A stretch of 64,000 nt of DNA from Argopecten irradians (taxonomy: Eukaryota), in the NCBI RefSeq assembly GCF_041381155.1, contig NC_091134.1, forward strand, positions 61,182,902 to 61,246,901. The letters are read 5' to 3'. The notes beneath the pieces were generated by a model. That model was not told where the DNA came from, did not search any database, and worked only from the letters and a program-made list of their open reading frames with translations. Each line of letters opens with the position of its first letter. Position 1 is the stretch's first letter. A program made the position numbers and the translations under genes. Shown piece after piece: positions 3,596-46,878 of this stretch.

Positions 3596-4400
3596 TTAGA
3601 TTAGGGTTCGTAAAATAATATTTTGGTATGTGTATTTGCCTAATTTGATGAACTGATATGTGAGTACAATTAAATAAGTAGTGAAATTCGTCACCAATAC
3701 CGTTGGAACAAAGGGGACAAATTCTTTCATTGCGGGTATATTAGCCCATCGTCCCGTTTCTATGGGCAAATGTAAATTAGAAGTACGTAATTTAACAATA
3801 TTTTTTCTATCTTTTTCATTCAGTTTCAATAGATAATTCTCCATTTGAAAATCGTTTTTAAAAACTGTATACATTTTACCTTTTGATGACAAATTCATAT
3901 CATTAAACCACCTTTGAATAAATTGATCCTTAAGTATTTGTTTAATGGTAAATTTTAAATATATTTTGTTCAATGTACAAGATTCCTGTATATTCCATAC
4001 AAAATTTAAGCCTGTCTCATAAAAAATATTTCGCACAAAATCGATCCATTTAAAACTTATGTTTCCATTTACATGCAATTGGTACATTAGTTTATATATT
4101 TTGCTTGACAATTTATCAGTGGAAATTAAATTATACCAAAACATGACCATTCTACATTTCACTTCAATACTCAACGGATATCTACTCAATTCACCATAGA
4201 CTATAAAGTTTGGTGTACTACGTCTCAAACCTAAGATACGTTTACAGAATTGCAAGTGATTTTTTTCAATAAGAAAATACAAATATTGTACATACAAAGT
4301 GAAGGCATCGATGTAGCCAGTTTTTCGATTTATTTCGAGTAAACATAGCTCACCAACAGTCCAAATTGTATCGTAGTCATATGTGTGAGAATGCCTATCA
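3596..4400 (-). mobile_element. Non-LTR retrotransposon (LINE, CR1/L2-like) ORF2 C-terminal fragment
   Basis: The 233-aa ORF contains ..ILGLRRSTPNFIVYGELSRYPL.. and ..KLRTSNLHLPIETGRW... These are motifs typical of the region downstream of RT in CR1/L2-type LINE pol proteins. There is no upstream RT or EN, so it is a fragment. Confidence 0.6.
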
Positions 4401-17274: not shown

Positions 17275-18512
17275 GGCTAAGATGTGATATTGTTTATGTA
17301 GACAGAAGATCAAGTAAATGAGGTAGAGGTGTGATATTGTTTATGTAGACAGAAGATCAAGTAAATGAGGTAGAGGTGTGATATTATTTATGTAGACAGA
17401 AGATCAGGTAAATGAGGAAGAGATGTGATATTGTTTATGTAGACAGAAGATCAGGTAAATGAGGCTGAGATGTGATATTGTTTATGTAGACAGAAGGTCA
17501 GGTAAATGAGGTAGAGATGTGATATTGTTTATGTAGACAGAAGATCAGGTAAATGGGGTAGAGATGTGATATTGTTTATGTAGACAGAAGATCAAGTAAA
17601 TGAGGTAGAGATGTGATATTGTTTATGTAGACAGAAGATCAGGTAAATGAGGTAGAGATGTGATATTGTTTATGTAGACAGAAGATCAGGTAAATGAGGT
17701 AGAGATGTGATATTATTTATGTAGACAGAAGATCAGGTTAATGAGGTAGAGATGTGATATTGTTTATGTAGACAGAAGTTTAGTAAAAATGGGTAGTGAT
17801 ATGATATTGTTTATGTAGACAGAAGATCAGGTAAATGAGGTAGAGATGTGATATTGTTTATGTAGACAGAAGATCAGGTTAATGAGGTAGAGATGTGATA
17901 TTGTTTATGTAGACAGAAGATCAGGTAAATGAGGCTGAGATGTGATATTGTTTATGTAGACAGAAGATCAGGTAAATGAGGAAGAGATGTGATATTGTTT
18001 ATGTAGACAGAAGATCAGGTAAATGAGGTAGAGATGTGATATTGTTTATGTAGACAGAAGACCAGGTTAATGAGGTAGAGATGTGATATTGTTTATGTAG
18101 ACAGAAGACCAGGTTAATGAGGTAGAGATGTGATATTGTTTATGTAGACAGAAGACCAGGTTAATGAGGTAGAGATGTGATATTGTTTATGTAGACATAA
18201 GATCAGGTAAATGAGTTAGAGATGTGATATTGTTTATGTAGACAGAAGATCAGGTAAATGAGGTAGATATGTGATATTGTTTATGTAGACAGAAGATCAG
18301 GTAAATGAGGTAGAGATGTGATATTGTTTATGTAGACAGAAGATCAAGTAAATGAGGTAGAGATGTGATATTGTTTATGTAGACAGAAGATCAGGTAAAT
18401 GAGGTAGAGATGTGATATTGTTTATGTAGACAGAAGATCAAGTAAATGAGGTAGAGATGTGATATTGTTTATGTAGACAGAAGATCAGGAAATGAGGTAG
18501 AGATGTGATATT
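17275..18512. repeat. 37-bp minisatellite (unit ~tgtgatattgtttatgtagacagaagatcaggtaaatgaggtagaga) x ~33, left block
   Basis: Direct reading. It sits in a gene A intron. Confidence 0.9.
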
Positions 18513-18514
18513 GT

Positions 18515-20370
18515 TTTTAGGTCATCTGACCCGAAGGGTCAGGATGACCTATAGTCATCATGTTTCATCCGTCATCGTCCGCCGTCCGCCGTCCGCCGTG
18601 CGTTAACTTTTCACATTTTGAACTTCTTCTCAAGTTCTACCAGTGCAATTTGGCTGAAACTTGCATGAAATGATCCTGACATGGTCCCGACAAAGTGTTG
18701 TTATTTTTCGGGTCGATCCGAAATCAAAGATGGCCGCCACAGCCGCCATCTTGAAAACACATTTTGAACTTCTTCTCAAGTTCTACCGGTGCGATTTGAC
18801 TGAAACTTGCATGAAATGATCCTGACATGGTCCCGACAAAGTGTTGTTAATTTTCAGGTCGATCCGAAATCCAAGATGGCCGCCACAGCCACCATCTTGA
18901 AAACACATTTTGAACTTCTTCTAAAGTTCTACTGGTGCGCTGAAACTTGCATGAAATGATCCTGACATGGTCCTGACAAAGTGTTGTTATTTTTCGGGTC
19001 GATCCGAAATCCAAGATGGCCGCCACAGTCGCCATCTTGAAAACACATTTTGAACTTCTTCTCAAGTTCTACTGGTGCGATTTGGCTGAAAATTGCATGA
19101 AATGATCCTGACATGGTCCTGACAAAGTGTTGTTATTTTTCGGGTCGATCCGAAATCCAAGATGGCAGCCACAGCCGCCATCTTGAAAACACATTTTGAA
19201 CTTCTTCTCAAGTTCTACTGGTGCGATTTGGCTGAAACTTGCATGAAATGATCCTGACATGGTCCCGACAAAGTGTTGTTATTTTTCGGGTCGATCCCAA
19301 ATCCAAGATGGCCGCCACAGCCGCCATCTTGAAAACACATTTTGAACTTCTCAAGTTCTACCGGTGCGATTTGGCTGAAACTTGCATGAAATGATCCTGA
19401 CATGGTCCCGACAAAGTGTTGTTATTTTTCGGGTCGATCCGAAATCCAAGATGGCCGCCACAGCCGCCATCTTTAAAACACATTTTGAACTTCTCAAGTT
19501 CTACCGGTGCGATTTGGCTGAAACTTGCATGAAATGATCCTGACATGGTCCCGACAAAGTGTTGTTATTTTTCGGGTCGATCCGAAATCCAAGATGGCCG
19601 CCACAGCCGCCATCTTGAAAACACATTTTGAACTTCTTCTCAAGTTCTACCGGTGCGATTTGACTGAAACTTGCATGAAATGATCCTGACATGGTCCAAA
19701 CAAAGTGTTGTTATTTTTCGGGTCGATCCGAAATCCAAGATGGCCGCCACAGCCGCCATCTTGAAAACACATTTTGAACTTCTTCTCAAGTTCTACTGGT
19801 GCGATTTGACTGAAACTTGCATGAAATGATCCTGGCATGGTCCCGACAAAGTGTTGTTATTTTTCGGGTCGATCCGAAATCCAAGATGGCCACCACAGCC
19901 GCCATCTTGAAAACACATTTTGAACTTCTTCTCAAGTTCTACCGGTGCGGTTTGACTGAAACTTGCATGAAATGATCCTGACATGGTCCTGACAAAGTGT
20001 TGTTATTTTTTAGGTTGATACGAAACCCAAGATGGCAGCCACAGCCGCCATCTTGAAAACATATTTCGAACTTCTTCTCAAGTTCTACCGGTGCGATTTG
20101 GCTGAAACTTGCATGAAATGATCCTGACATGGGCCCGACAAAGTATTGTTACATCTCTGGTTGATCACAAATCGAAGCTGGCTACCATGACACTCTATCT
20201 AATTAATTTCCTATATGTTAAGGCCCTTGGGCCTCTTGTTTGAAATAAAATTTGTTGAAAGAAATTGAAAATGATCCTGACATGGTCCTGACAAAGTGAC
20301 ACCATATATAATTAATTTTACTATTGCCAAGGTAGTCAGATGACCGTTAAGGCCCTTTGGGCCTCTTGTT
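18515..20370 (-). mobile_element. HINE-like element carrying satellite C, inserted inside the 37-bp minisatellite. On the + strand it reads, in order:
- TTTTAG + hairpin (ggtcatctgacccgaagggtcaggatgacc)
- (CCGT/CCGC)n
- ~146-bp satellite C x ~10.5 (18603-20150)
- duplicated tail ..gtcagatgaccgttaaggccctttgggcctcttgtt
   Basis: The minisatellite unit is split (..gatattgttt | element | gtagacataagatcagg..) and resumes in phase. The tail contains gtcagatgacc, which is complementary to the head stem ggtcatctgac (an asymmetric TIR). Confidence 0.65.
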
Positions 20371-22195
20371 GTAGACATAAGATCAGGTAAATGAGGAAGA
20401 GATGTGATATTATGAAGACAGAAGATCAGGTAAATGAGGAAGAGATGTGATATTGTTTATGTAGACAGAAGATCAGGTAAATGAGGTAGAGATGTGATAT
20501 TGTGTATGTAGACAGAAGATAAGGTAAATGAGGTAGAGATGTGATATTGTTTTTGTAGACAGAAGATAAGGTAAATGAGGAAGAGATGTGATATTGTTTT
20601 TGTAGACAGAAGATCAGGTAAATGGGGTAGAGATGTGATATTGTTTATGTAGACAGAAGATCAGGTAAATGAGGTAGAGGTGTGATATTGTTTATGTAGA
20701 CAGAAGATCAGGTAAATGAGGTAGAGATGTGATATTGTTTATGTAGACAGAAGATCAAGTAAATGAGGTAGAGGTGTGATATTGTTTATGTAGACAGAAG
20801 ATCAAGTAAATGAGGTAGAGATGTGATATTGTTTATGTAGACAGAAGATCAGGTAAATGAGGAAGAGATGTGATATTGTTTATGTAGACAGAAGATCAAG
20901 TAAATGAGGTAGAGGTGTGATATTGTTTATGTAGACAGAAGATCAAGTAAATGAGGTAGAGGTGTGATATTGTTTATGTAGACAGAAGATCAGGTTAATG
21001 AGGTAGAGATGTGATATTGTTTATGTAGACAGAAGACCAGGTTAATGAGGTAGAGATGTGATATTGTTTATGTAGATAGAAGATCAGGTAAATGAGGTAG
21101 AGATGTGATATTGTTTATGTAGACAGAAGATCAGGTTAATGAGGTAGAGATGTGATATTGTTTATGTAGACAGAAGGTCAGGTAAATGAGGTAGAGATGT
21201 GATATTGTTTATGTAGACAGAAGGTCAGGTAAATGAGGTAGAGATGTGATATTGTTTATGTAGACAGAAGGTCAGGTAAATGAGGTAGAGATGTGATATT
21301 GTTTATGTAGACAGAAGATCAGGTAAATGAGGTAGAGATGTGATATTGTTTATGTAGACAGAAGATCAGGTAAATGAGGTAGAGATGTGATATTGTTTAT
21401 GTAGACAGAAGACCAGGTAAATGAGGTAGAGATGTGATATTGTTTATGTAGACAGAAGATCAGGTTAATGAGGTAGAGATGTGATATTGTTTATGTAGAC
21501 AGAAGATCAGGTAAATGAGGTAGAGATGTGATATTGTTTATGTAGACAGAAGATCAAGTAAATGAGGTTGAGATGTGATATTGTTTATGTAGACAGAAGA
21601 TCAGGTAAATGAGGTAGAGATGTGATATTGTTTATGTAGACAGAAGATCAGGTAAATGAGGTAGAGATGTGATATTGTTTATGTAGACAGAAGATCAGGT
21701 AAATGAGGTTGAGATGTGATATTGTTTATGTAGACAGAAGATCAGGTAAATGAGGAAGAGATGTGATATTGTTTATGTAGACAGAAGATCAGGTTAATGA
21801 GGTAGAGATGTATATGTTTATGTAGACAGAAGATCATAATGAGGTGTGTGATATGTTATGTAGACAGAAGATCAGGTAAATGAGGTAGAGATGTGATATT
21901 GTTTATGTAGACAGAAGATCAGGTAAATGAGGTAGAGATGTGATATTGTTTATGTAGACAGAAGATCAGGTAAATGAGGTAGAGATGTGATATTGTTTAT
22001 GTAGACAGAAGATCAGGTAAATGAGGTAGAGATGTGATATTGTTTATGTAGATAGAAGATCAGGTAAATGAGGTAGAGATGTGATATTGTTTATATAGAC
22101 AGAAGGTAAGGTAAATGAGGTAGAGATGTGATATTGTTTATGTAGATAGAAGATCAGGTAAATGAGGTTGAGATGTGATATTGTGTAGACAAAAG
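20371..22195. repeat. 37-bp minisatellite, right block x ~49
   Basis: Same unit as the block at 17275-18512. Confidence 0.9.
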
Positions 22196-22610
22196 ATAAG
22201 GTAAATAGAGGTCAATCATTTAAATCGATGCATGTCATAATATTCTTCATGGATTGTAACCAAATTTGGCCAGAAACATCCTCTAAGAGTTTGTATAGTT
22301 ATTGGCTCTGACCCCCTGGGGCAGGAGGGGCGAGGTTTAATAGGAGAAATAGAGGTAATTCCTTTAAATCGCTACTAGTCATAGAGTTCTGCATTAAATT
22401 TGGCTAGAAACATCTTTTGAGGAAGGGGAACAGACTGTTTATAAATTTTGGCTGTAAAGCAGAATAAGTGGAGCCTAATGGGGAAATTAGTAAATATCTA
22501 AATTTACTTCAGAAAAGAAACAATGAACCTGTAATCAGAACCTTACTTGGCATTACAAACCAGGTGAGCGATACAGGCCCTCTTGGCCTCTTGTTTAGAT
22601 GATTTCAATA
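22196..22610 (-). mobile_element. Headless fragment of a satellite-D element: ~1.7 monomers plus tail (..accaggtgagcgatacaggccctcttggcctcttgttt)
   Basis: It matches the 31054-33057 element at the monomer and tail. Confidence 0.55.
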
Positions 22611-26924: not shown

Positions 26925-27000
26925 TTAGCTCACCTCTTGAAGAGGAGGGGGGGGGGTGCTTATAGAATCACCCTGGTGTCAGCGTTGGCATTAAAATGAC
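26925..27000 (-). mobile_element. Degenerate hairpin-head remnant (tttttagctcacctcttgaagagga(G)10tgcttat)
   Basis: It matches the ttttagctcacctg..ggtgagcttat head family. It contains a (G)10 tract. Confidence 0.35.
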
Positions 27001-27474
27001 CGCGTTAAGGGTTTGGTGAAATTGTTGAAATGAAATAATGTTATCTGTAATAAATGACATGTAGTTCTACAATGATATTGGATTATAATTGTTAGCTCAA
27101 GATTAGCTTATACCATAATGTGGGTTCTGTCCTTCAACAGTCGACTTAACCGCTGGTCAGAATTTATCCCAATTTGACAAGTATTGCATCCTTAAGAGGT
27201 GGGAACTGAAAATTATACAAAAGATCAGGCTGAGTGGCGGGGCCAAAGGTATCAATTTGTCTATTTCCAGAATGATTTCTTCCCAGTAACTAACTAGACA
27301 TAAGATAGTACACATATTGCATTGGTAGCAATCCTATGGAGTTGGGGATTCAAAATTGTTCAAATGGTTGGCCCCCTAGTTCACTTGAGGTAAATTGATA
27401 TTGTATATATGTTGTAAGGTCAATTGAATTGGCATTAGAGCCTGAAATTGACAAAAGATATATATCATTTGCAG

Positions 27475-27581
27475 TATGAAGCAGCTTTGGGTGAAGTGTA
27501 TGGACTTTTGTCTGACTTAGAAGAAGATGTGTATGACGATATGTATTGCAATGCCGATTCTGAAGTTGAGAGGTCACACAG
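27475..27581 (+). CDS. Gene A exon (YEAALGEVYGLLSDLEEDVYDDMYCNADSEVERSH-)
   Basis: Acceptor atcatttgcag| and donor cacacag|gtaggt. It ends in phase 2. Confidence 0.5.
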
Positions 27582-29389
27582 GTAGGTAAAGTATTCTGGG
27601 AATGTGTATATATTATTTGTTAGCGGAAACTAATAGGATTACGCCTCATTAAGTAGAGCTTAATATTTTACTTAAAGACCTAATATGATACAAAGTATTT
27701 TTTTGCTGACATGATTAAACATTTTACTATAAATTCAATGTAATTTAAACTTTCAGGTAGCTCTAAAAGTTTCATGCATGATATGGTCCTGCTGATGTTA
27801 AGTTAAAGAAGTTTTATTGAATATTAAAATTGTTATGAACAAGGTCAATCATTTTGATAAATTGTGGAAGAAAGCAGAGTGAGGAGTTTGGAGGTTTCGT
27901 TAGCCTGCCATACCCCTTTCTAACTTATATAACCATAGTAATATGGCTTTTACAAAGAAAGTTGAGATCTATATCTAGCTCACCTGATCGGAAGGGCCAG
28001 ATAGTTGCCATGAAATATCATCTATCCCTCTGTCTATTAATTTTTCCTTTGCTGCTAGATCTGCATAGATTGTAACCAAAGGAGGGGTATCACTTTGGGC
28101 TGTTTTACGGCCACTCAGTCATAAGCAAATTATTTTGCATGAAGATACATTAGGGTCAGCTGCATATTGTATGCTATTCAGAATATCCATGTTTTTCTAT
28201 GCTCATGATAATTTCAGAGGTCAAAGATCAAACGGTGGAAATTCACATTTTCATTGTTTAAGTCCTAATTAATTAAATATTAGAATAGAGATAAACTTTT
28301 TTGCAGATTTTGCATGTAAATATTGGGTTTGTAAAGTTCAGTTCAGAAAACTGATGAAAAGTTCAAAAAGTAGGTCACAGTGACCTAGTTAAGCATTTAT
28401 TCTATTTAAGCATTAAAAACTTTAATATTTTTGCTGAAAACTAAGATTTTTTCACCGATTTGATTGCTTGAAATTGATGTTTAGTACTGCATAAGGATCT
28501 TGACTTGACCTGTTTAAGATGATTACATCCTAGGGTCACATTGGTTAGGTCAGGTGCATAAATTAGGTCATATTCAATGAATGGTATCATCTATCCACTA
28601 AGCATATGCTGTTTTCCAATGTTTAAAACATGATTTGAAATTATTTAGACTTGTTTTATGAGCTTAATTTCAAGCAACGCATTGACTGTGGTAGGATGTT
28701 AGAATTATGCCTTCTGTCCCACTGCATGATCGTGACAGGCGACTAAATTTGGAATCTTAATTTCACGGTTACTGAGATGAAAATATTATAATTTTTCAAC
28801 CATTTCAAAGCTTTAGAGTAATGTTTAGCACTTGATTTGTATTTTGTCAGATCTACAATAGATTATTACATCCTAATATCACATTTGCTGGGTCACATGT
28901 ATAAATGTTATAAGTACAGGTTATGTACAAAAACATCCTTCAGGCCTAGGCAAACAGAAATTGTATAAATCTTGGTTCTGACCTCCCCCTGGGCCAAATA
29001 TGGGGAAGCTGAGATAAGATAATTCCTCTAAATTGCTACAGTAACTATAGTCTTAAGGTTCTTCATCCAATGGATTTTAACTGAATTTGATTAGAAATGT
29101 TCTTTGGGAAAGGTGAACAGATTTTGTATAAATGGCTGGGTGGGACTCATTAGGGGGAAATAGAAATAATTCTTTTATATGATAACCTTGAGTAAATAAA
29201 CATAACCTGTACCAGTGGAAATCTTACAAAATGACATAAATGAAATATCCCTGTCTATTTGACAGACCCATGTTTGACTCCTTTTCTCCCATATTTGAAC
29301 AACAATTGATGAAATTCCAGTCATTAAATTGTGCCATATCCTAGAAATGTCATAATAATAATGATAACATTGTTGACAATGGGCGACAC

Positions 29390-30957
29390 ATATATTGATG
29401 ATGTTATGCTTTTGTCTTAAGTATGGAGCCATCCTTTATGAAGTCACAGTGGCATATGTGAGTAAAGCCAGTCTGCCATATGGCAGTCATTGCTTTATGT
29501 CAATCTGGCAAAATTTCCAACTATGCAGTCAATGATGTCCCTAAGCATCATTATAGAATCTCGCCATGTTTTATTTTGAAATCCTTGTTGACCTTGTTTT
29601 GATAATAAATAATGTAATTAAAGACTTCTTTGCTTGCAAATAATTGGAGCATTCAGAATTTAAAAAAGTAGTTGTTGTAAAAATTCCAGTTACCTCTGTT
29701 TGTTACATTTTTGTATATCACCACATTGAATGTTTACTTTTTATCATCAGTAGAGTGTCAGAAGGGGAGTCAATACCTTCATCTTTACTGGTGACGGAAA
29801 AAATGGTGAGTTTACACAGATAAGCATTCCAGATTCATATTAATCCACCGGCATGCTGGAATGACTAGATCACTAAATAAAGTATTTCAGTGAAAGTTAC
29901 TCTGTGTTCTATTTTGTCTTTGTATGTAACAGTTATCTATCCTTGAGTTATCTATTTGGCCCACTTCATTTAAAATGCCAGGTGGAGTCAGTCATGTGGC
30001 TGGCTTATAAAAGGCTTGTGTCAATAAAATTCTGCCAGTAAGCTAATTAAATCCAAATTTGTATTTAGAAAATGTGATGTTTTCCCAGATAATTACGGTA
30101 ATATTTATTCCTGACTGGCATGGTAAGTGTGTTTTTAGCTCACCTGGCCTGAAGGGCCGGTGAGCTTATATATATTGATGATGTTTGCTTTTGTCTTAAG
30201 TATGGAGCCATCCTTTATGAAGTCACAGTGGCATATGTGAGTAAAGCCAGTCTGCCATATGGCAGTCATTGCTTTATGTCAATCTGGCAAAATTTCCAAC
30301 TATGCAGTCAATGATGTCCCTAAGCATCATTATAGAATCTCGCCATGTTTTATTTTGAAATCCTTGTTGACCTTGTTTTGATAATAAATAATGTAATTAA
30401 AGACTTCTTTGCTTGCAAATAATTGGAGCATTCAGAATTTAAAAAAGTAGTTGTTGTAAAAATTCCAGTTACCTCTGTTTGTTACATTTTTGTATATCAC
30501 CACATTGAATGTTTACTTTTTATCATCAGTAGAGTGTCAGAAGGGGAGTCAATACCTTCATCTTTACTGGTGACGGAAAAAAATGGTGAGTTTACACAGA
30601 TAAGCATTCCAGATTCCAGATTCATATTAATCCACCGGCATGCTGGAATGACTAGATCACTAAATAAAGTATTTCAGTGAAAGTTACTCTGTGTTCTATT
30701 TTGTCTTTGTATGTAACAGTTATCTATCCTTGAGTTATCTATTTGGCCCACTTCATTTAAAATGCCAGGTGGAGTCAGTCATGTGGCTGGCTTATAAAAG
30801 GCTTGTGTCAATAAAATTCTGCCAGTAAGCTAATTAAATCCAAATTTGTATTTAGAAAATGTGATGTTTTCCCAGATAATTACGGTAATATTTATTCCTG
30901 ACTGGCATGGTAAGTGTGTTTTTAGCTCACCTGGCCTGAAGGGCCGGTGAGCTTATG
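29390..30957. repeat. Tandem duplication of a ~780-bp unit (29390-30169 and 30170-30957). Each copy ends with the hairpin tttttagctcacctggcctgaagggccggtgagcttat.
   Basis: The two copies are >98% identical by eye. Indels include ttatgc/tttgc and A6/A7. Confidence 0.85.
29750..29804 (+). CDS. Gene A candidate exon (-S RVSEGESIPSSLLVTEKM), in copy 1 of a 780-bp tandem duplication. The paralogous copy at 30530-30585 has an extra A that breaks the frame.
   Basis: Acceptor tttttatcatcag| and donor aaaatg|gtgagt. Only copy 1 keeps the phase chain intact. Confidence 0.35.
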
Positions 30958-33057
30958 TCATGGCGCGGCGTCCGTCGTCGTCCGTGCCGTCCGTCCGTCC
31001 GTCCGTCCGTCCGTCCGTCGTCCGTCCGTCCGTCCGTCGTCCGTCCGTCCGTCAACATTTCCTTTAAATCGCTACTAGTCATAGAGTTCTGCATGGATTG
31101 TAACCAAATTTGGCCACAAACATCCTTGGGGGAGGGGGAACAGAACTTGTATAAATTTTGGCTCTGTCCCCCCCGGGGCAGGAGGGGCGGGGCCCAATAG
31201 GGGAAATAGAGGTAAATCCTATAAATCGCTACTTGTCCTAGAGTTCTGCATGGATTGTAATCAAATTTGACCACAAACATCCTTGGGGGAGGGGGAACAG
31301 AACTTGTATAAATTTTGGCTCTGGTCCCTCAGGGGCAGGAGGGGCGGGGCCCAATAGGGGAAATAGAGGTAAATCCTATAAATCGCTACTTGTCCTAGAG
31401 TTCTGCATGGATTGTAACCAAATTTGACCACAAACATCCTTGGGGGAGCAGAAACAGAACTTGTATATAAATTTTGGCTCTGGTCCCCCAGGGGCAGGAG
31501 GGGCGGGGCCCAATAGGGGAAATAAAGGTAAATCCTTTATATCGCTACTTGTAATAGAGTTCTACATGAATTGTAACCAAATTCGGCCACAAACATCCTT
31601 GGGGGAAGGGGAACAGAACTTGTGTAAATTTTGACTCTGGTCCCCCGGGGGCAGGAGGGGCGGGGCCCAATAGGGGAAATAGAGGTAAATCCTTTAAATC
31701 GCTACTAGTCATTGAGTTCTGAATGGAATGTAACCAAATTTGGCCACAAACATCCTTGGGGGAAGGGGAACAGACCTTGTATAAATTTTGGCTCTGACCC
31801 CCGGGGGCAGGAGGGGCGGGGCCCAATAGGGGAAATAGAGGTAAATCCTTTAAATCTCTACTAGTCATAGAGCTCTACATGAATTGTAACCAAATTTGGC
31901 CACAAACATCCTTGGGGGAAGGGGAACAGAACTTGTATAAATTTTGGTTCTGATCCCCCAGGGGCAGGAGGGGCGGGGCCCAATAGGGGAAATAGAGGTA
32001 AATCCTTTATATCGCTACTTGTCATAGAGTTCTGAATGGAATGTAACCAAATTTGGCCATAAACATCCTTATGGGAAGGGGAAGAGAACTTGTATAAATT
32101 TTGGCTCTAGTCCCCCGGGGGCAGGAGGGGCGGGGCCCAATAGGGGAAATAGAGGTAAATCCTTTAAATCGCTACTAGTCATTGAGTTCTGAATGGAATG
32201 TAACCAAAATTTGGCCACAAACATCCTTTGGGGAAGGGGAACAGAACTTGTATAGATTTTGGCTCTGACCCCCCCGGGGGCAGGAGGGGCGGGGCCCAAT
32301 AGGGGAAATAGAGGTAAATCCTTTATATCGCTACTTGTCATAGAGTTCTGAATGGAATGTAACCAAATTTGGCCATAAACATCCTTTGGGGAAGGGGAAG
32401 AGAACTTGTATAAATTTTGGCTCTAGTCCCCCGGGGGCAGGAGGGGCGGGGCCCAATAGGGGTAATAGAGGTAAATCCTTTAAATCGCTACTAGTCATTG
32501 AGTTCTGAATGGAATGTAACCAAAATTTGCCACAAGCATCCTTTGGGGAAGGGGAACAGAACTTGTATAGATTTTGGCTCTGACCCCCCCGGGGGCAGGA
32601 GGGGCGGGGCCCAATAGGGGAAATAGAGGTAAATCCTTTAAATTGCTACTAGTCATAGAGTTCTGCATGGATTGAAACCAAATTTGGCCACAAACATCCT
32701 TGGGGGAAGGGGAACAGAACTTGTATAAATTTTGACTCTGGCCCCCCGAGGACAGGACGGGTGGGGCCCAATAGGGGAAATAGAGGTAAATCCTATAAAT
32801 CACTTCTTGTCCTAGAGTTTTTCTTGGATTGTGACCAAATTTAGCCATAAACATCCTTGGGGGAAGGGGAACAGAACTTGTATAAATTTTGGCTCTGACC
32901 CCCTGGGGGCGGGAGGGGTGGGGCCCAATAGGGGATTTAGAGGTTAATATTAAAATTCCTTCAGAAAAGAAACAATGAACCTGTATTCAGAACATTACTT
33001 GGCATTACAAACCAGGTGAGCGATACAGGCCCTCTGGGCCTCTTGTTTACAAACAAC
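30919..33057 (-). mobile_element. HINE-like element carrying satellite D. On the + strand it reads, in order:
- hairpin agctcacctggcctgaagggccggtgagct
- (CGTC/CCGT)n microsatellite 30958-31053
- ~157-bp satellite D x12 (31054-32935)
- tail ..ttcagaaaagaaacaatgaacctgta..accaggtgagcgatacaggccctctgggcctcttgtttac
   Basis: Direct reading. The satellite-D monomer contains the GC-box-like aggaggggcggggccc. Confidence 0.6.
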
Positions 33058-33179
33058 ATAATTATAGCCCCCTACCCTTACAACAAAGTTACGCCGTTTT
33101 GTTACAAAATGATAAAACAATTACTCCTCTTAAACTACTGAAGAAATTTCATCGAAGTTTGGTAGCAATAATCTTTATA

Positions 33180-33430
33180 CAGTGCAGATATGCATAATTG
33201 ATATCTGAACAAGACATATTCATCTTTATTTAGGTCATCTAACCTGGAGAGTCAGGATGACCTATATTACAGTGCAAATATGCATAATTGATATCTGAAC
33301 TAGATATATTCATCTTTATTTAGGTCATCAAATTAAACCTGAACGGTCAGGATGACCTATATTCATCATGCTTTGTCTGTTGTCATGCTCTGTTTGTAAA
33401 CATTTAAACCACTTCTTAATAACCGATGTA
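33180..33430 (-). mobile_element. Degenerate element. It has two tandem copies of a ~90-bp segment, each with the hairpin head (taggtcatctaacctggagagtcaggatgacct / taggtcatcaaattaaacctgaacggtcaggatgacct), then a decayed microsatellite and the start of a satellite-A monomer.
   Basis: Compared with the 53395 element head, tgtcatcatgc..cgtc..aaacttttcatttaaatgacttcttc. Confidence 0.45.
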
Positions 33431-35119
33431 TCTCCATTTGCCCACTTTTTATAATCTGATAATTACGGTAGCAGAATGTTATGACAAGGATTATAATCTA
33501 TTTCAGAGAAGTTAACCTGGATTTACCTGTATTTTACCTGTAAAATTTCACCTGTACTACTGTACTTATTCCATAAGGGTATCATTTATATATAACATGT
33601 ACATGTATGAAAATTATATTACATGGAAAAATCTATAAATTTGTTACTCTATTTGTGATCTCAGTTATGTTCTTGATATTTTTATATTAAGTGAACATAT
33701 CAAATGTATAATCAATATTTGGTACTAACAAAAAAAATCCTTTCTATCATTTTGACAAACATACATACATGCCATACAATTACATTAAACTTCATGTACA
33801 TATACACATAAATGATAACTAGAAAAATAGTTTATGGTAATATCTAATCATACAGTTTATATTTACGCCTCTTTTCATTAGAAATAACCTTTTTGACATT
33901 TTATTTTACTAAAATATATTGCAATATATCTTCATTTTTAGGAACCCCATTGTGCCAATTTGCTGACAAAAATCTTACCAGTACTTTTACGTTCATAATT
34001 GGACATGTGCGAAATTTATTATAAAAAGTCCTTTTTCGAAGTATCACTAGCTAAAAGATTACTGTTTTTCCGGGAAGATTGCGTGTTCAAACTATCCGGA
34101 ATCAGCAAAACTTTGAACAATTTATCATTGTTCTTCAGTTATAGTATAATGTTAATCAGTTACAATTACATTTGTAGTCTCTCAAACAATTTGCATTCTG
34201 CAGAAGTATATCTTATGTAAAAATCCTTAGGTTTTTTATAGTGTGACATATATATATACCAACTCATGCAAATTCAGTTTTGCAGGCTACTGTTTTCGAT
34301 ATTACAGTACAACATTTAGGACAAAAGATATCTCAATTAATCCAAATATCACATTCTGACTAAAAGTATATTATCTTAACCTTTTATTAAGTAGATATTT
34401 TAGGGGCCATCTGGATGTTTAAAAAAAATTGCGAAAATATCATCCTTGATGAAAAAATAGCTGGATTTTCTCAATGTGTAACATACAAATATATACAGTC
34501 ATTGTAGAATTGGAAGGCCGGGACATCGGTAAAATTTGGTATCGATTGTATCGTATAAAACTGTATACGATATAATTAATTATATACAATTATGTTATTT
34601 ACATGTATATATATTGTTACATGTATCCTCCTATAGAACAGTATCTTGTGATATATTCTCTAATTCTCTATATGTTTGGATAAGTACACATGCCAACATA
34701 AGAAGCATTATTATCTTATATGATAATGTTAGTGGAATATGTGTATTACTTTTGTCAAATATTTTGTAGCTAACAGGTTAGTAATTACAGGTACATACAG
34801 TACCGTGCCAAAAGTATTGTAAATTAATGGTAATATTACATATTTGTTTTTAAATAACTCTTGAAATTGCAACAGTTTGTAAAAAACAACTTGCTATTTT
34901 TGTGACAAAAACATATATAGTACTGTACTGTATATATTGATATCTTTCTATTTCCCCACTTTTGACAAACTATAGTTTGCTCAGGTAAACTAATACAGGT
35001 AAGCACAGGTAAAAATTAATATGGAAATGACTATAATTGGTTTTCCATTGTTCTTCTATACCAACACTTTTCTTTGTTCTCTAAAAAGTGGGCAAATGGA
35101 GAACACACCACCCAAGGTA

Positions 35120-36497: not shown

Positions 36498-37920
36498 GAG
36501 TTCTGAAGAAGACTCGAAACAAGATCATCCAGTGACGCTACTATGTGCAGATTCTCTGCCTTCCTTATCAGAACGGTCTGCCTCACCTAAAACATCATTT
36601 TTACCCACTACAATAGAGGAGGACGTCTCAGAAGCTATTAGCTGTACCATTGCAAGGCCTGATAAGGTTGCCACATCGGTTTCCCCAAGGCCGTTAGGTG
36701 CAGGTCCACCCGAAGTCCCCCTATTTGACATGATGGATTTGAAATCCAGAGGCCCTCCAGATCATACTTCTGGTATGCTTAAAACCTATCGTCATCTAAG
36801 CCAATTTCATCCCATTGAATTGTCAGAAATACAACCTCCACCTGCCATGGCCTTTACACCTGGAGCAGCACCTTCCCATCAACAACAATCTGCAATGGCT
36901 GTTACACTGGGAGCTCCTCCACAAACACAGTCTGCCATGGCCTATACATCAGAAGTCCCTCTTCCTCTTCCACAACAAGCTGCTAATAGGTCAGCAATAA
37001 GTGCTCCATCAGCTAGGCCTCCTCCGCCTCCTCCGCCTCGTCAAATGCTTGACATGGCATTTACATTAAGTGGACCTCCTCCCCCACCAAGGGCTCCATC
37101 AGCTGGGCCTCCTCTGCCTCCTCAAATGCTTGACATGGCTTTTACATCAAGTGGACCTCCTCCCCCACCAAGGGCTCCATCAGCTAAACCTCCTCCGCCT
37201 CCTCCAATGCTTGGCAAGGATTTTACATCAAGTGGACCTCCTCGCCCACCAAGGGCTCCATCAGCTAGACCTCCTCTGCCTCCTCCAATGCTTGGCAAGG
37301 ATTTTACATCAAGTGGACCTCCTCGCCCACCAAGGGCTCCATCAGCTAAACCTCCTCCGCCTCCTCCAATGCTTGGCAAGGATTTTACATCAAGTGGACC
37401 TCCTCGCCCACCAAGGGCTCCATCAGCTAAACCTCCTCCGCCTCCTCCAATGCTTGGCAAGGATTTTACATCAAGTGGACCTCCTCGCCCACCAAGGGCT
37501 CCATCAGCTAGACCTCCTCTGCCTCCTCCAATGCTTGACAAGGCTTTTACATCAAGTGGACCACCTCCTCCACCTCCTGTATCTCTCATGGCTGTTACAT
37601 CAAGTAGACCTCCTTCCCGATCAAATTTTCGATTAGCTGGACCACCTCCACCTCCTCCAATGCCTTACAAGGCTTTTACATCAAGTGGATCTTCTTCCCC
37701 ACCAATGCCTCAAATTACATTTTGTAAAATGTCTGCAAAGATTCCTTCAAGTCATAAAAGTTACTCATCTGACGATGATGATGAGTATTACAGGGTGCAT
37801 TCTCTCAGTAAGCCTTCCAGACCTGATCCAATTCCAATGTCTTTGGATTATGACCTTGATGATGTACCAAAATATAAGGATGAAGGCAAAGATGGGGTTG
37901 TGCATTTTGCATGTTCACAG
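36498..37920 (+). CDS. Gene A large exon. It is proline-rich and low-complexity, with 8 tandem 23-aa repeats (FTSSGPPRPPRAPSAKPPPPPPMLGKD) encoded by 69-bp DNA repeats (about 36990-37560). It has an FH1-like polyproline character.
   Basis: A 470-aa ORF with acceptor gtttttttttacag| and donor tcacag|gtatgt. It starts with 1 nt completing a codon and ends in phase 0. Confidence 0.6.
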
Positions 37921-38776
37921 GTATGTCCAAGAGTTTGTGATTGATATATTGCAATACATGATATTTACTGATATCATAATTATTTAGGTATTTTTTGCTA
38001 AATAAATACATAATACATTATGTATATTATATTTGATTCAAAAGTGTAGTCATGTACATTCCTAGAACCGATCAAATTGCACTAAATAATTCAATCTATA
38101 CATATGAGAAACGGATACATTTTATCATAAATGTACTAGTTAATCTACATTAGTGCTCCTTGATTACCTATACCTCATGAGAAAACATGCATTCGTTTAT
38201 ATAAGGGTTGTCAAACCGGTTGGAATTCACTAACCGGTTACTCGATATATTTTCCGATAAAGTAACCGGTTAGTTGGTGAACTTATATGTAACAATGGCT
38301 ATAATTTAACGTACCGGTTTGTGTGCTGCAGTTTAAACGAGTTGTACTAACGACAGTGTGACTACCTTTTTAATAAGACTATTTTGTTAAACCAACACTT
38401 TCAATTCTGATATTTCTAAGAACTACTTTCGGTATGGAATCTGGAAATTCCAGATTCTGGAAAGAATAGAAAGTACAAAAAAGTTAAACTGACTTTATGC
38501 AGCGAGTCGTGAACAGTTGCTGATAGCAAATGGAGCCACAGCAAATTCTACCAATGTTGTGTTCGTTTGTTAACTACTATTAGCGTAGGCCTTTTGTTTA
38601 GACGTATTGCTATATAATTTGAAACTGTCACATCAAGAATAATGTAAATACTGCAAGTTTCTCTAAACATTGTACATTGTAAAGAGCCTGAATAAACCTG
38701 AATAAAGTTTGAAGAGATAGACTACAGGTATGATGTGTGTCTAGTTTTCAATCATTTGTTTACCAATATCTTTTTT

Positions 38777-39754: not shown

Positions 39755-39865
39755 GTAAATAATTAAGCTTCAACACATCTTCTGGTTCTAAAGATGTGAT
39801 ACATTTTTCTCTGACTGTATTTATAACACCCTCTGTTGTAGGTTATCATTAGTATAAAGTCATAG

Positions 39866-42800
39866 GTAGGTATTGTTATACTGTCCTTGGTACATAGTCA
39901 TTGCTAGGTATTGTTATACTGTCCTTGGTACATAGTCATTGTTAGGTATTGTTATACTTGTCCATTGGTAATAGTCATTGTTAGGTATTTTTATACTGTC
40001 CTTGGTATATAGTCATTGTTAGGATTGTTATACTGTCCTTGGTACATAGTCATTGTTAGATATTGTTATACTATCCTTGGTATATAGTCATTGTTAGGTA
40101 TTGTTATACTGTCCTTGGTATATAGTCATTGTTAGGTATTGTTATACTGTCCTTGGTACATAGTCATTGTTAGGTATTGTTATACTGTCCTTGGTATATA
40201 GTCATTGTTAGGTATTGTTATACTATCCTTGGTATATAGTCATTGTTAGGTATTGTTATACTGTCCTTGGTATATAGTCATTGTTAGGTATTGTTATACT
40301 GTCCTTGGTATATAGTCATTGTTAGGTATTGTTATACTGTCCTTGGTATATAGTCATTGTTAGGTATTGTTATACTGTCCTTGGTATATAGTCATTGTTA
40401 GGTATTGTTATACTTTCCTTGGTATATAGTCATTGTTAGGTATTGTTATACTATCCTTGGTATATAGTCATTGTTAGGTATTGTTATACTGTCCTTGGTA
40501 TATAGTCATTGTTAGGTATTGTTATACTGTCCTTGGTATATAGTCATTGTTAGGTATTGTTATACTGTCCTTGGTATATAGTCATTGTTAGGTATTGTTA
40601 TACTGTCCTTGGTATATAGTCATTGTTAGGTATTGTTATACTGTCCTTGGTATATAGTCATTGTTAGGTATTGTTATACTGTCCTTGGTATATAGTCATT
40701 GTTAGGTATTGTTATACTGTCCTTGGTATATAGTCATTGTTAGGTATTGTTATACTATCCTTGGTATATAGTCATTGTTAGGTATTGTTATACTGTCCTT
40801 GGTATATAGTCATTGTTAGGTATTGTTATACTGTCCTTGGTATATAGTCATTGTTAGGTATTGTTTATCTGTCCTTGGACTATATAGTCATTGTTAGGTA
40901 TTGTTATACTGTCCTTGGTATAGTCATTGTTCATTGTTATACTTCCTGGTATAGTCATTGTTTATTGTTATACTGTCCTTGGTATATAGTCATAGTTAGG
41001 TATTGTTATACTGTCCTTGGTACATAGTCATTGTTAGGTATTGTATTGTACTGTCCTTGGTACATAGTCATTGTTAGTATTGGTATTGTTATACTGTCCT
41101 TGGTACATAGTCATTGTTAGGTATTGTTATACTGTCCTTGGTATATAGTCATTGTTAGGTATTGTTATACTGTCCTTGGTACATAGTCATTGTTAGGTAT
41201 TGTTATACTGTCCTTGGTACATTAGTCATTGTTAGGTATTGTTATACTGTCCTTGGTATATAGTCATTGTTAGGTATTGTTATTACTGTCCTTGGTACAT
41301 AGTCATTGTTAGGTATTGTTATACTGTCCTTGGTATATAGTCATTGTTAGGTATTGTTATACTGTCCTTGGTATATAGTCATTGTTAGGTATTGTTATAC
41401 TGTCCTTGGTATATAGTCATTGTTAGGTATTGTTATACTGTCCTTGGTACATAGTCATTGTTAGGTATTGTTATACTATCCTTGGTATATAGTCATTGTT
41501 AGGTATTGTTATACTGTCCTTGGTATATAGTCATTGTTAGGTATTGTTATACTGTCCTTGGTATATAGTCATTGTTAGGTATTGTTATACATCCTTGGTA
41601 TAGTCATTGTTAGGTATTGTCCTTTAGGTATTGTTATACTGTCCTTGGTATATAGTCATTGTTAGGTATTGTTATACTGTCCTTGGTATATAGTCATTGT
41701 TAGGTATTGTTATACTGTCCTTGGTATATAGTCATTGTTAGGTATTGTTATACTGTCCTTGGTATATAGTCATTGTTAGGTATTGTTATACTGTCCTTGG
41801 TATATAGTCATTGTTAGGTATTGTTATACTGTCCTTGGTATATAGTCATTGTTAGGTATTGTTATACTGTCCTTGGTATATAGTCATTGTTAGGTATTGT
41901 TATACTGTCCTTGGTACATTATCATTGTTAGGTATTGTTATACTGTCCTTGGTACATAGTCATTGTTAGGTATTGTTATACTGTCCTTGGTACATAGTCA
42001 TTGTTAGGTATTGTTATACTGTCCTTGGTATATAGTCATTGCTAGGTATTGTTATACTGTCCTTGGTACATAGTCATTGTTAGGTATTGTTATACTGTCC
42101 TTGGTATATAGTCATTGTTAGGTATTGTTATACTGTCCTTGGTATATAGTCATTGTTAGGTATTGTTATACTGTCCTTGGTATATAGTCATTGTTAGGTA
42201 TTGTTATACTGTCCTTGGTATATAGTCATTGTTAGGTATTGTTATACTATCCTTGGTATATAGTCATTGTTAGGTATTGTTATACTGTCCTTGGTACATA
42301 GTCATTGTTAGGTATTGTTATACTATCCTTGGTATATAGTCATTGCTAGGTATTGTTATACTATCCTTGGTATATAGTCATTGTTAGGTATTGTTATACT
42401 GTCCTTGGTATATAGTCATTGTTAGGTATTGTTATACTGTCCTTGGTATATAGTCATTGTTAGGTATTGTTATACTGTCCTTGGTATATAGTCATTGTTA
42501 GGTATTGTTTATACTATCCTTGGTATATAGTCATTGTTAGGTATTGTTATACTGTCCTTGGTATATAGTCATTGTTAGGTATTGTTATACTGTCCTTGGT
42601 ACATAGTCATTGTTAGGTATTGTTATACTGTCCTTGGTACATATAGCCATTGTTAGGTATTGTTATACTGTCCTTGGTATATAGTCATTGTTAGGTATTG
42701 TTATACTGTCCTTGGTATATAGTCATTGTTAGGTATTGTTATACTATCCTTGGTATATAGTCATTGTTAGGTATTGTTATACTGTCCTTGGTATATAGTC

Positions 42801-45800
42801 ATTGTTAGGTATTGTTATACTGTCCTTGGTATCATAGTCATTGTTAGGTATTGTTATACTGTCCTTGGTATATAGTCATTGTTAGGTATTGTTATACTGT
42901 CCTTGGTATATAGTCATTGTTAGGTATTGTTATACTGTCCTTGGTATATAGTCATTGTTAGGTATTGTTATACTGTCCTTGGTATATAGTCATTGTTAGG
43001 TATTGTTATACTGTCCTTGGTATATAGTCATTGTTAGGTATTGTTATACTGTCCTTGGTACATAGTCATTGTTAGGTATTGTTATACTGTCCTTGGTACA
43101 TAGTCATTGTTAGGTATTGTTATACTGTCCTTGGTACATAGTCATTGTTAGGTATTGTTATACTGTCCTTGGTACATAGTCATTGTAGGTAGGTACTTCC
43201 TTGGTATAGCATTGTTAGGTATTGTTATACTGTCCTTGGTACATAGTCATTGTTAGGTATTGTTATACTGTCCTTGGTACATAGTCATTGTTAGGTATTG
43301 TTATACTGTCCTTGGTATATAGTCATTGTTAGGTATTGTTATATACTGTCCTTGGTATATAGTCATTGTTAGGTATTGTTATACTGTCCTTGGTATATAG
43401 TCATTGTTAGGTATTGTTATACTGTCCCTTAGGTATTGGTCCTTGGTATATAGTCATTGTTAGGTATTGTTATACTGTCCTTGGTATATAGTCATTGTTA
43501 GGTATTGTTTATACTGTCCTTGGTACATAGTCATTGTTAGGTATTGTTATACTATCCTTGGTATATAGTCATTGTTAGGTATTGTTATACTGTCCTTGGT
43601 ATATAGTCATTGTTAGGTATTGTTATACTATCCTTGGTATATAGTCATTGTTAGGTATTGTTATACTGTCCTTGGTATATAGTCATTGTTAGGTATTGTT
43701 ATACTGTCCTTGGTACATAGTCATTGTTAGGTATTGTTATACTGTCCTTGGTATATAGTCATTGTTAGGTATTGTTATACTGTCCTTGGTATATAGTCAT
43801 TGTTAGGTATTGTTATACTGTCCTTGGTACATAGTCATTGTTAGGTATTGTTATACTGTCCTTGGTACATAGTCATTGTTAGGTATTGTTATACTGTCCT
43901 TGGTATATAGTCATTGTTAGGTATTGTTATACTATCCTTGGTATATAGTCATTGTTAGGTATTGTTATACTGTCCTTGGTACATAGTCATTGTTAGATAT
44001 TGTTATACTGTCCTTGGTACATAGTCATTGTTAGGTATTGTTATACTGTCCTTGGTATATAGTCATTGTTAGGTATTGTTATACTGTCCTTGGTACATAG
44101 TCATTGTTAGGTATTGTTATACTGTCCTTGGTACATAGTCATTGTTAGGTATTGTTATACTGTCCTTGGTATATAGTCATTGTTAGGTATTGTTATACTA
44201 TCCTTGGTATATAGTCCATGTTAGGTATTGTTATACTGTCCTTGGTATATAGTCATTGTTAGGTATTGTTATACTGTCCTTGGTATATAGTCATTGTTAG
44301 GTATTGTTATACTGTCCTTGGTATATAGTCATTGTTAGGTATTGTTATACTGTCCTTGGTATATAGTCATTGTTAGGTATTGTTATACTGTCCTTGGTAT
44401 ATAGTCATTGTTAGGTATTGTTATACTATCCTTGGTATATAGTCATTGTTAGGTATTGTTATACTGTCCTTGGTACATAGTCATTGCTAGGTATTGTTAT
44501 ACTGTCCTTGGTATATAGTCATTGTTAGGTATTGTTATACTGTCCTTGGTATATAGTCATTGTTAGGTATTGTTATACTGTCCTTGGTATATAGTCATTG
44601 TTAGGTATTGTTATACTATCCTTGGTACATAGTCATTGTTAGGTATTGTTATACTATCCTTGGTACATAGTCATTGTTAGGTATTGTTATACTGTCCTTG
44701 GTATATAGTCATTGTTAGGTATTGTTATACTGTCCTTGGTATATAGTCATTGTTAGGTATTGTTATACTGTCCTTGGTATATAGTCATTGTTAGGTATTG
44801 TTATACTGTCCTTGGTATATAGTCATTGTTAGGTATTGTTATACTGTCCTTGGTATATAGTCATTGTTAGGTATTGTTATACTGTCCTTGGTATATATAG
44901 TCATTGTTAGGTATTGTTATACTGTCCTTGGTATATAGTCATTGTTAGGTATTGTTATACTGTCCTTGGTACATAGTCATTGTTAGGTATTGTTATACTG
45001 TCCTTGGTACATAGTCATTGTTAGGTATTGTTATACTATCCTTGGTATATAGTATTGTACTATCCTTGGTATATAGTCATTGTTAGGTATTGTTATACTG
45101 TCCTTGGTATATAGTCATTGTTAGGTATTGTTATACTGTCCTTGGTATATAGTCATTGTTAGGTATTGTTATACTATCCTTGGTATATAGTCATTGTTAG
45201 GTATTGTTATACTGTCCTTGGTACATAGTCATTGTTAGGTATTGTTATACTATCCTTGGTAACATAGTCATTGTTAGGTATTGTTTATACTATCCTTGGT
45301 ATATAGTCATTGTTAGGTATTGTTATACTGTCCTTGGTATATAGTCATTGCTAGGTATTGTTATACTGTCCTTGGTATATAGTCATTGTTAGGTATTGTT
45401 ATACTGTCCTTGGTATATAGTCATTGTTAGGTATTGTTATACTGTCCTTGGTATATAGTCATTGTTAGGTATTGTTATACTGTCCTTGGTACATAGTCAT
45501 TGTTAGGTATTGTTATACTGTCCTTGGTATATAGTCATTGTTAGGTATTGTTATACTGTCCTTGGTACTTATAGTCATTGTTAGGTATTGTTATACTGTC
45601 CTTGGTATATAGTCATTGTTAGGTATTGTTATACTGTCCTTGGTACATAGTCATTGTTAGGTATTGTTATACTGTCCTTGGTATATAGTCATTGTTAGGT
45701 ATTGTTATACTGTCCTTGGTACATAGTCATTGTTAGGTATTGTTATACTATCCTTGGTATATAGTCATTGTTAGGTATTGTTATACTGTCCTTGGTATAT

Positions 45801-46878
45801 AGTCATTGTTAGGTATTGCTAGGTATTGTTATACTGTCCTTGGTACATAGTCATTGTTAGGTATTGTTATACTATCCTTGGTATATAGTCATTGTTAGGT
45901 ATTGTTATACTGTCCTTGGTATATAGTCATTGTTAGGTATTGTTATACTGTCCTTGGTATATAGTCATTGTTAGGTATTGTTATACTATCCTTGGTATAT
46001 AGTCATTGTTAGGTATTGTTATAGGTATTGTTATACTGTCCTTGGTATATAGTCATTGTTAGGTATTGTTATACTGTCCTTGGTATATAGTCATTGTTAG
46101 GTATTGTTATACTGTCCTTGGTACATAGTCATTGTTAGGTATTGTTATACTGTCCTTGGTATATAGTCATTGTTAGGTATTGTTATACTGTCCTTGGTAT
46201 ATAGTCATTGTTAGGTATTGTTATACTGTCCTTGGTATATAGTCATTGTTAGGTATTGTTATACTATCCTTGGTATATAGTCATTGTTAGGTATTGTTAT
46301 ACTGTCCTTGGTATATAGTCATTGTTAGGTATTGTTATACTGTCCTTGGTATATAGTCATTGTTAGGTATTGTTATACTGTCCTTGGTACATAGTCATTG
46401 TTAGGTATTGTTATACTGTCCTTGGTATATAGTCATTGTTAGGTATTGTTATACTGTCCTTGGTATATAGTCATTGTTAGGTATTGTTATACTGTCCTTG
46501 GTATATAGTCATTGTTAGGTATTGTTATACTGTCCTTGGTATATAGTCATTGTTAGGTATTGTTATACTGTCCTTGGTATATAGTCATTGTTAGGTATTG
46601 TTATACTGTCCTTGGTATATAGTCATTGTTAGGTATTGTTATACTGTCCTTGGTATATAGTCATTGTTAGGTATTGTTATACTATCCTTGGTATATAGTC
46701 ATTGTTAGGTATTGTTATACTGTCCTTGGTATATAGTCATTGTTAGTGTTAGGTATTGTTATACTGTCCTTGGTATATAGTCATTGTTAGGTATTGTTAT
46801 ACTGTCCTTGGTATATAGTCATTGTTAGGTATTGTTATACTGTCCTTGGTATATAGTCATTGTTAGGTATTGTTATAT
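39866..46878. repeat. 36-bp minisatellite (tatagtcattgttaggtattgttatactgtccttggta), ~7 kb and ~195 units, in a gene A intron
   Basis: Direct reading. Units carry occasional t/c (tatag/catag) and g/a variants. Confidence 0.95.

Follow-up and report, generated by a model that had tools for sequence, protein, structure and literature searches.

Tandem duplication of upstream flank and left-end hairpin at a Helentron-type element of Argopecten irradians

Introduction

The non-autonomous Helentrons known as HINEs (Helentron-associated interspersed elements) are built from a 5' subterminal inverted repeat (subTIR) with an internal inverted repeat complementary to it, a microsatellite, tandem repeats in the centre, and a 3' subTIR followed by a palindrome near the 3' end; insertion is into TT, and the target is not duplicated (PMC4067079, PMC7492417). 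DINE-1 and the HINEs of mites and mosquitoes are described in PMC4067079, and the oyster Cg_HINE with its GTCY/GTCC microsatellites is described in PMC7492417. The element treated here lies at about positions 30922 to 33048 on the plus strand of a 64,000-nucleotide stretch of contig NC_091134.1 from Argopecten irradians (called the window below, with position 1 as its first letter). Judged from its sequence, it is a HINE of the bivalve pearl/Cg_HINE type. Its left end closes the second of two tandem copies of a unit built from upstream DNA and the left-end hairpin. The region from 29390 to 30956 is a very young tandem duplication made in place and not a product of transposition.

Two further systems bear on such a structure. 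In rolling-circle transposition, which begins at the 5' end, a missed 3' terminator carries the process on into the DNA 3' of the element (PMC4778049). Truncated Helitrons in tandem arrays, as outlined in the parts of PMC12628747 and PMC8268682 that deal with the work of Xiong, Dooner & Du (2016), show several 5' ends followed by one 3' end.

The Tandem Duplication

Local alignment places copy 1 at 29390-30169 (780 bp) and copy 2 at 30170-30956 (787 bp), in tandem on the plus strand. The copies show no substitutions over 779 aligned bases and differ by three indels: an additional A at 29406 that copy 1 alone carries (TGTTATGC, against TGTTTGC in copy 2), a run of six A's in copy 1 (29798-29803) versus seven in copy 2 (30577-30583), and a 7-bp slippage duplication of CCAGATT found in copy 2 only, inside 30609-30622. 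The alignment confirms a sequence-only reading of the stretch, which had described a unit of ∼740 bp plus hairpin occurring twice in tandem, with the microsatellite and the array only after the second copy. The 1-bp difference that it reported between the copies, A6 against A7, is present as well, but two further indels had been missed.

The repeat unit consists of 747 bp of non-element DNA and the first 33 bp of the element left end, the latter comprising the terminal T, the hairpin formed by the 5' subTIR and its inverted repeat, and TAT. The 30-nucleotide hairpin AGCTCACCTGGCCTGAAGGGCCGGTGAGCT occurs exactly twice in the window, with no occurrence expected in shuffled sequences. Folded as single-stranded DNA, it reaches −13.6 kcal/mol (z = −5.7), with the same z value for both canonical left ends. 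The (CGTC)n tract and the 157-bp array follow copy 2 only. Both 5' ends of the locus are intact, and they share a single 3' end. The 747-bp body does not occur a third time in the window.

Written from the base of the stem, with a caret at the break, the junction between the copies reads ...GGTGAGCT TAT ^ ATATATTG, compared to TAT ^ GTCATGG for the single-copy continuation. The proximal breakpoint thus lies 3 nucleotides past the hairpin stem, with 0 nucleotides of microhomology. Unequal crossing-over between hairpins is excluded because copy 1 has no hairpin upstream of it that could have served as the partner.

Structure and Boundaries of the Element

The modules of the element follow in the order hairpin, (CGTC)n microsatellite, twelve 157-bp satellite repeats, 3' subterminal repeat, and palindrome. 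HINE subTIRs are expected to measure ∼11 to 13 bp, with the 5' repeat 2 to 4 nucleotides from the terminus; here, GCTCACCTGG at 30925-30934 is matched perfectly over 10 bp by its complement CCAGGTGAGC at 33012-33021. An internal inverted repeat complementary to the 5' subTIR forms the hairpin at 30924-30953, as in DINE-1 and Cg_HINE, and the microsatellite is followed by the central tandem repeats. The 3' palindrome AGGCCCTCTGGGCCT occupies 33027-33041, 6 to 7 nucleotides from the end and between the 3' subTIR and the terminus, although its fold energy by itself is not significant (z = −0.9 to −2.0). The element thus shows the full HINE anatomy, and the hairpin is part of a mobile-element terminus, as the earlier reading had it. 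Neither the AGCTCACC hairpin nor the 157-bp monomer could be matched to a named family, and an Rfam scan of 27000-34000 gave no match.

This left-end layout recurs at three or more further places in the window (∼9278, 18518, and 53394) with other hairpins and other satellites, and again on contigs NSIT01000731 and NSIT01000495 from a king-scallop gill metagenome (PMC5772249). The shared layout runs from a T-run through TAG, the hairpin, TAT(N)GTCAT(CATG), a GTCY-type microsatellite, and GT(T/A)AAC to a satellite-like array. The sibling at 18518-20369 interrupts a single 47-bp satellite monomer and offers a natural empty-site control, in which GATATTG-TTTTT/TTTAT-GTAGACA is split into GATATTGTTT ^ TTAGGTCATC... 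and ...CCTCTTGTT ^ GTAGACA. The split falls inside the T-run of the monomer and places the element start 0 to 2 nucleotides before the stem, with no target duplication. Insertion into T-rich sequence without target duplication is thus seen through this sibling, and T-runs precede all left ends; the element at 30922-33048 itself shows just T-rich ends.

Six independent left ends, two of them from the scallop contigs, have only the T-run in common upstream. Since these flanks are otherwise unalike, and given the position of the terminus in the sibling inserted into the 47-bp satellite, the duplicated 747 bp lies outside the element, from which the composition of the repeat unit given above follows. 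The sequence-only reading had placed the duplicated DNA on the same outer side of the hairpin.

A Second, Older Duplication

A second duplication of the same design is located 2.2 kb away from the first and involves a different HINE family. Its unit A and unit B are identical at 84 of 90 aligned bases (93%) and differ by a 5-bp indel, which indicates an old duplication and makes an assembly error implausible as its source. Only unit B continues into TCATCATG and the modules beyond it, and the element behind it is truncated ∼25 bp into the first 145-bp-type monomer. The junction reads ...GATGACCTA TAT ^ TACAGTG, compared to TAT ^ TCATCATG for the single-copy continuation, so that the break again falls 3 nucleotides past the stem, here with at most 1 nucleotide of microhomology.

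Self-comparison of the 64 kb shows just these two adjacent two-copy duplications of at least 40 bp outside TRF satellite arrays, and both end at a left-end hairpin. With ∼7 independent hairpins and ∼7 positions at each in 64,000 nucleotides, the chance of such a coincidence is ∼1e-3 per breakpoint. The hairpin therefore seems to set the duplication breakpoint, and the link between stem-loop and breakpoint suggested by the sequence-only reading holds for both HINE families. The common form of the junctions, stem plus TAT with 0 to 1 nucleotide of microhomology, suggests that the break was fixed at the hairpin's 3' foot and that fill-in or end-joining came after it. The scarcity of microhomology also counts against simple slippage and homologous unequal crossing-over. 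The idea that each unit has a cryptic rolling-circle terminator at its distal boundary was considered and dropped, since the bottom strands there fold much as shuffled sequences do (z = +0.55 and −0.28), with no terminator-like hairpin at either boundary. The features of both duplications and of the element are collected in Table 1.

Table 1. Positions of the duplicated units, the HINE modules, and related features in the window
Feature	Position	Strand	Remark
Copy 1	29390-30169	+	747 bp non-element DNA, then 33 bp of element left end
Copy-1 hairpin	30137-30166	+	5' subTIR GCTCACCTGG and internal inverted repeat; solo left end, then TAT, then junction
Candidate exon, copy 1	29751-29805	+	55 nt, A6
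Copy 2	30170-30956	+	Last 33 bp = true left end of intact element
Copy-2 hairpin	30924-30953	+	Functional left end of the HINE, then TAT GTCATGG and microsatellite
Candidate exon, copy 2	30530-30585	+	56 nt, A7
(CGTC)n microsatellite, left flank module	30969-31053	+	Motif class GTCY/GTCC/GTCK as in Cg_HINE (PMC7492417)
Central array	31060-32948	+	12 x 157-bp satellite-like repeats
3' subterminal inverted repeat	33012-33021	+	CCAGGTGAGC, exact complement of 5' subTIR
3' palindrome	33027-33048	+	AGGCCCTCTGGGCCT overlapping CTCTTGTT(T); element 3' terminus
Older duplication, unit A	33178-33267	+	90 bp: 53 bp flank, T and hairpin AGGTCATC...GATGACCT, ATAT
Older duplication, unit B	33268-33362	+	95 bp; continues into TCATCATG, decayed microsatellite, truncated 145-bp-type monomer
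Sibling HINE	18518-20369	+	Interrupts one 47-bp satellite monomer; natural empty-site control for termini

Origin of the Duplications

The best explanation overall, to which about an even chance is given, is a duplication in place that started from a strand break at the foot of the hairpin, most likely a nick by the rolling-circle Rep/helicase. The 3' foot would be a preferred site of strand breakage, and the enzyme could reach it by two routes. Each stem is perfectly palindromic in its outer 8 bp, so that the hairpin reads alike on both strands; on the bottom strand, the break would approximately mirror the usual 5' nick. In the top-strand route, the left hairpin may be mistaken for a terminator, leading to premature termination. 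A second break on the other strand, 0.09 to 0.8 kb upstream, would produce a staggered break, and fill-in with blunt end-joining, or fork collapse and restart, would then double the interval between the breaks, with the hairpin included. The three indel-only differences between the young copies would fit error-prone repair synthesis and would equally fit long-read sequencing error. The transposase of the bat Helitron Helraiser makes an internal cut in the bottom strand of its left end in vitro, and hairpins cause it to pause and terminate (PMC4778049); this is a precedent for the nick model and not a test of it.

Several points weigh against a nick by the transposition enzyme. There are two examples, both from one window, and the mirror symmetry is approximate, with the normal terminus 0 to 2 nucleotides from the stem and the junction 3 nucleotides from it. 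The bottom-strand context of the junctions is C^ATA or A^ATA, unlike the T^T of normal termini. We know of no Helentron cleavage site that has been mapped biochemically, and the open reading frame (ORF) scan and Pfam search revealed no autonomous Helentron ORF (Rep, helicase, or endonuclease) in the window. The distal breakpoints of both duplications carry no recognisable signal. Both units of the older case share two inner-stem changes relative to the family consensus, so that this hairpin was perhaps in decay already at the time of the duplication, or perhaps represents another subfamily. Finally, a hairpin beside a microsatellite could stall replication without any transposase.

This last point leads to the serious rival, a structure-driven replication error, which is possible but would be a tentative choice. 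Here, the fork stalls or breaks at the foot of the GC-rich hairpin where it abuts the (CGTC)n tract, and template switching, break-induced replication, or unequal end-joining between sister chromatids makes the duplication. A strong hairpin adjoining a microsatellite is the context common to both examples, the indel-only differences match error-prone restart synthesis, and the older example was perhaps duplicated once decay of its hairpin had begun. Template switching, however, normally leaves at least 2 nucleotides of microhomology, compared to 0 and at most 1 here, and a stall would be expected at either foot of the hairpin, whereas both junctions lie at the same foot and at the same distance. 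Nor do duplications of this kind occur at the 3' palindromes or at the other inverted repeats of the window. The missing microhomology and the constant side and distance thus count somewhat against fork stalling. An assembly artefact, through stacked haplotypes or a chimeric long read near hairpin and microsatellite, concerns the young 780-bp pair and is unlikely. In its favour, the copies differ by indels alone, including one within a homopolymer, as is typical of long-read errors, and neither metagenome, bacterial/archaeal, and viral contigs nor exact ORF look-ups yielded an independent record of this locus. Polishing would make a sequence laid down twice identical, and the fixed 7-bp difference argues for two distinct templates. 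Heterozygosity is high in bivalves, and two stacked alleles would be expected to differ by several single-nucleotide polymorphisms in 779 bp. The older example, of the same design with its 93% identity and 5-bp indel, is an old genomic duplication.

The sequence-only reading had suggested, beside a duplication templated at the stem-loop, a capture by read-through or end bypass, which would make the 747 bp cargo of the element. Helitron-type elements do take up flanking DNA through terminator bypass (PMC4778049, PMC4067079), and two 5' ends with one 3' end are known from the Helitron arrays of Xiong et al. (2016), as far as PMC12628747 reports them. Bypass, however, takes DNA 3' of the terminator, and at this locus the 5' flank was duplicated, with a distal boundary that shows no terminator-like structure. 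The first 747-bp copy has no hairpin upstream, leaving flank plus hairpin twice in place and not an inserted composite; no other copy of the unit, transposed or otherwise, is present in the window; and in the known arrays with several 5' ends, as described in the same part of that source, the repeated unit is the element's own interior. Capture by transposition is therefore very improbable and the claim was not upheld. That two ordinary tandem duplications merely happened to end beside hairpins is hardly credible: the window is rich in repeats, but two of its very few two-copy duplications end within the same 3 nucleotides of a left-end hairpin, at the chance per breakpoint given above.

A break at the hairpin foot by the Rep/helicase remains the preferred reading. 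A more far-reaching form of it, in which the Helentron left-end hairpin would be a strand-symmetric nick site and an off-pathway cut after stem-TAT would recurrently duplicate upstream host DNA, giving a route of capture on the 5' side, is rather doubtful.

Candidate Exon and Coding Sequences

The sequence-only reading had seen a candidate host exon in the duplicated unit. The stretch at 29751-29805 has one open frame and lies between TTTTTATCATCAG and GTGAGT; in copy 1 it would encode the 18-residue peptide RVSEGESIPSSLLVTEKM, and copy 2 reads ...TEKN. The described signals, a polypyrimidine tract with a CAG acceptor and a GTGAGT donor, are thus present, but the reading as an exon stays at the rate of chance: the combination of polypyrimidine tract and AG, open frame, and GTRAGT donor occurs at 6 distinct donor sites in the window, 2 of which are these copies, compared to 4.4 ± 2.5 in composition-preserving shuffles. 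Pfam searches with nine window ORFs, both candidate-exon ORFs included, gave no match. A coding exon is unsupported, the description of copy 1 as in frame and copy 2 as frameshifted is meaningless without known neighbouring exons, and the proposal of mutually exclusive exons is speculation that finds no support.

A large open exon lies 6.7 kb downstream at ∼36498-37944 on the plus strand, with a 470-amino-acid ORF and a polypyrimidine tract with a CAG acceptor. It contains tandem proline-rich repeats of 27 amino acids (PPPPPPMLGKDFTSSGPPRPPRAPSAK; 81-bp period, 6.8 copies). Two database searches revealed no homologue, and no Pfam domain and no exact record were found. Given this exon downstream on the same strand, the duplicated region may be intronic or upstream of a gene; the 18-residue peptide cannot be linked to the exon because the latter has no detectable homologues.

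Other Elements and Features of the Window

Recognisable HINE left ends occur at 9279, 18519, 26927, 27977, 30137, 30924, 33232, 33322, and 53395, all on the plus strand, and a motif scan of the window found none on the minus strand. This is also the strand of the sole clear coding exon. The sibling HINE at 18518-20369, which lies within an array of the 47-bp satellite (17280-22212; 26 + 40 copies), has a 146-bp array of its own and carries two tandem 3' ends. The first, ...GTTAAGGCCCTTGGGCCTCTTGTT at ∼20216-20240, has no 3' subTIR. It is separated by a 28-bp spacer and a partial monomer from the second, complete end with subTIR CAGATGACC, palindrome, and CTCTTGTT, which ends at 20369. The paired 3' ends at 20190-20369 look like terminator bypass or head-to-tail insertion of a 5'-truncated copy. 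The elements on the king-scallop contigs (NSIT01000731, 1-868, and NSIT01000495, 1-891), which are host DNA filed under a Pecten maximus gill metagenome, have a left end identical to that of the 18518 element, with arrays 70 to 75% identical to its array.

Just upstream of the duplication, 27977-29180 holds an old, decayed element of the AGCTCACC family with the hairpin remnant TAGCTCACCTGATCGGAAGGGCCAGATAG, 157-bp monomer remnants of 65 to 79% identity, and the microsatellite CATCTATCCCTCTGTCTATT, decayed apparently by CpG loss. The 747 bp was considered as a part of this element and rejected, as the repeat remnants stop at 29180 and the 3' end, placed by eye at ∼29275, lies ∼115 bp before the unit. 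A further left-end-like module, TTTTTAGCTCACCTCTTGAAGAGGAGGGGGGGGGGTGCTTATAGAATCACC, at 26927-26990 shares the outer stem of the 30922-33048 element and has a different inner stem interrupted by a run of ten G's.

Searches for exact or degenerate hairpins of the AGCTCACCTGGCCTGAAGGGCCGGTGAGCT type gave no match in metagenome contigs or in bacterial/archaeal genomes. In viral contigs, a 15-mer gave chance matches only, none with the hairpin, and the sibling hairpin had no match. The search with the sibling-family hairpin yielded the two king-scallop contigs, which are useful for the element boundary and not for the studied locus. Exact look-ups of six window ORFs, including the ORF spanning the copy 1/copy 2 junction and the large exon, were all empty. 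Elsewhere in the window, a 7-kb array of a 38-bp satellite (39852-46877) contains ∼183 copies with 92 to 94% identity and a 114-bp higher-order period. A 233-amino-acid ORF at 3596-4297 on the minus strand, which we take to resemble the C-terminal part of a non-LTR retrotransposon reverse transcriptase, had no Pfam match at E ≤ 0.01.

Significance

In bivalves and Drosophila, HINEs account for a large part of the repeats, and they have been connected with duplicated genes and with the origin of satellite DNA. The two cases from one window provide a modest but concrete lead, as a fixed breakpoint of hairpin plus 3 nucleotides in two families is a concrete prediction that can be counted genome-wide and would point to the cutting place of an enzyme or of a stalled fork. 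A transposition event that began at the upstream hairpin could carry along the 754 bp of copy 2 lying between the two hairpins. If the strand-symmetric nick is true, loci with two 5' ends could carry host sequence, potentially exons, into new copies; sequence capture would then have a path on the 5' side, and new tandem repeats would have a starting point. Should the cause be no more than a local repair accident, the duplication is simply a young one of the ordinary kind within non-coding sequence.

Comparison with Known Systems

Tandem duplications are reportedly obtained in paired Cas9-nickase experiments in plants and human cells from staggered nicks, fill-in, and end-joining. The studied locus resembles these products in that the interval between offset breaks is doubled and the junction is blunt, with little or no microhomology; it differs in that the source of the nicks is inferred and not observed.

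In the truncated-Helitron arrays, as far as the sources cited above present them, like-oriented 5' ends precede one 3' end, as do the two of the studied locus. Their unit begins at the 5' end, extends into internal sequence of the element, and arises on a circular intermediate, whereas here host flank follows the first hairpin and the duplication stands at the original site. The first hairpin is followed by the 747-bp flank and the second by the microsatellite, with nothing in common between the two continuations. The 3' end-bypass transduction of Helitrons, described for Helraiser (PMC4778049), is alike in that hairpins signal to the rolling-circle machinery and flanking host DNA is affected. 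The studied locus concerns the opposite end and direction: the duplicated DNA lies 5' of the element, no new terminator-like hairpin marks the distal boundary, and there is no sign of mobilisation.

The closest relatives are the HINEs and DINE-1-type elements, including the oyster Cg_HINE and the bivalve pearl, CvA, MgE, and DTC84 elements, of which every structural module is also present at ∼30922-33048, together with T-rich ends and the lack of a target-site duplication (PMC7492417, PMC4067079). A tandem repeat of host flank plus left hairpin with a fixed junction was not found in the HINE and Helitron literature compared. A canonical HINE has one left end, and the studied locus has two. The element is a further member of a well-known kind, the bivalve HINEs.

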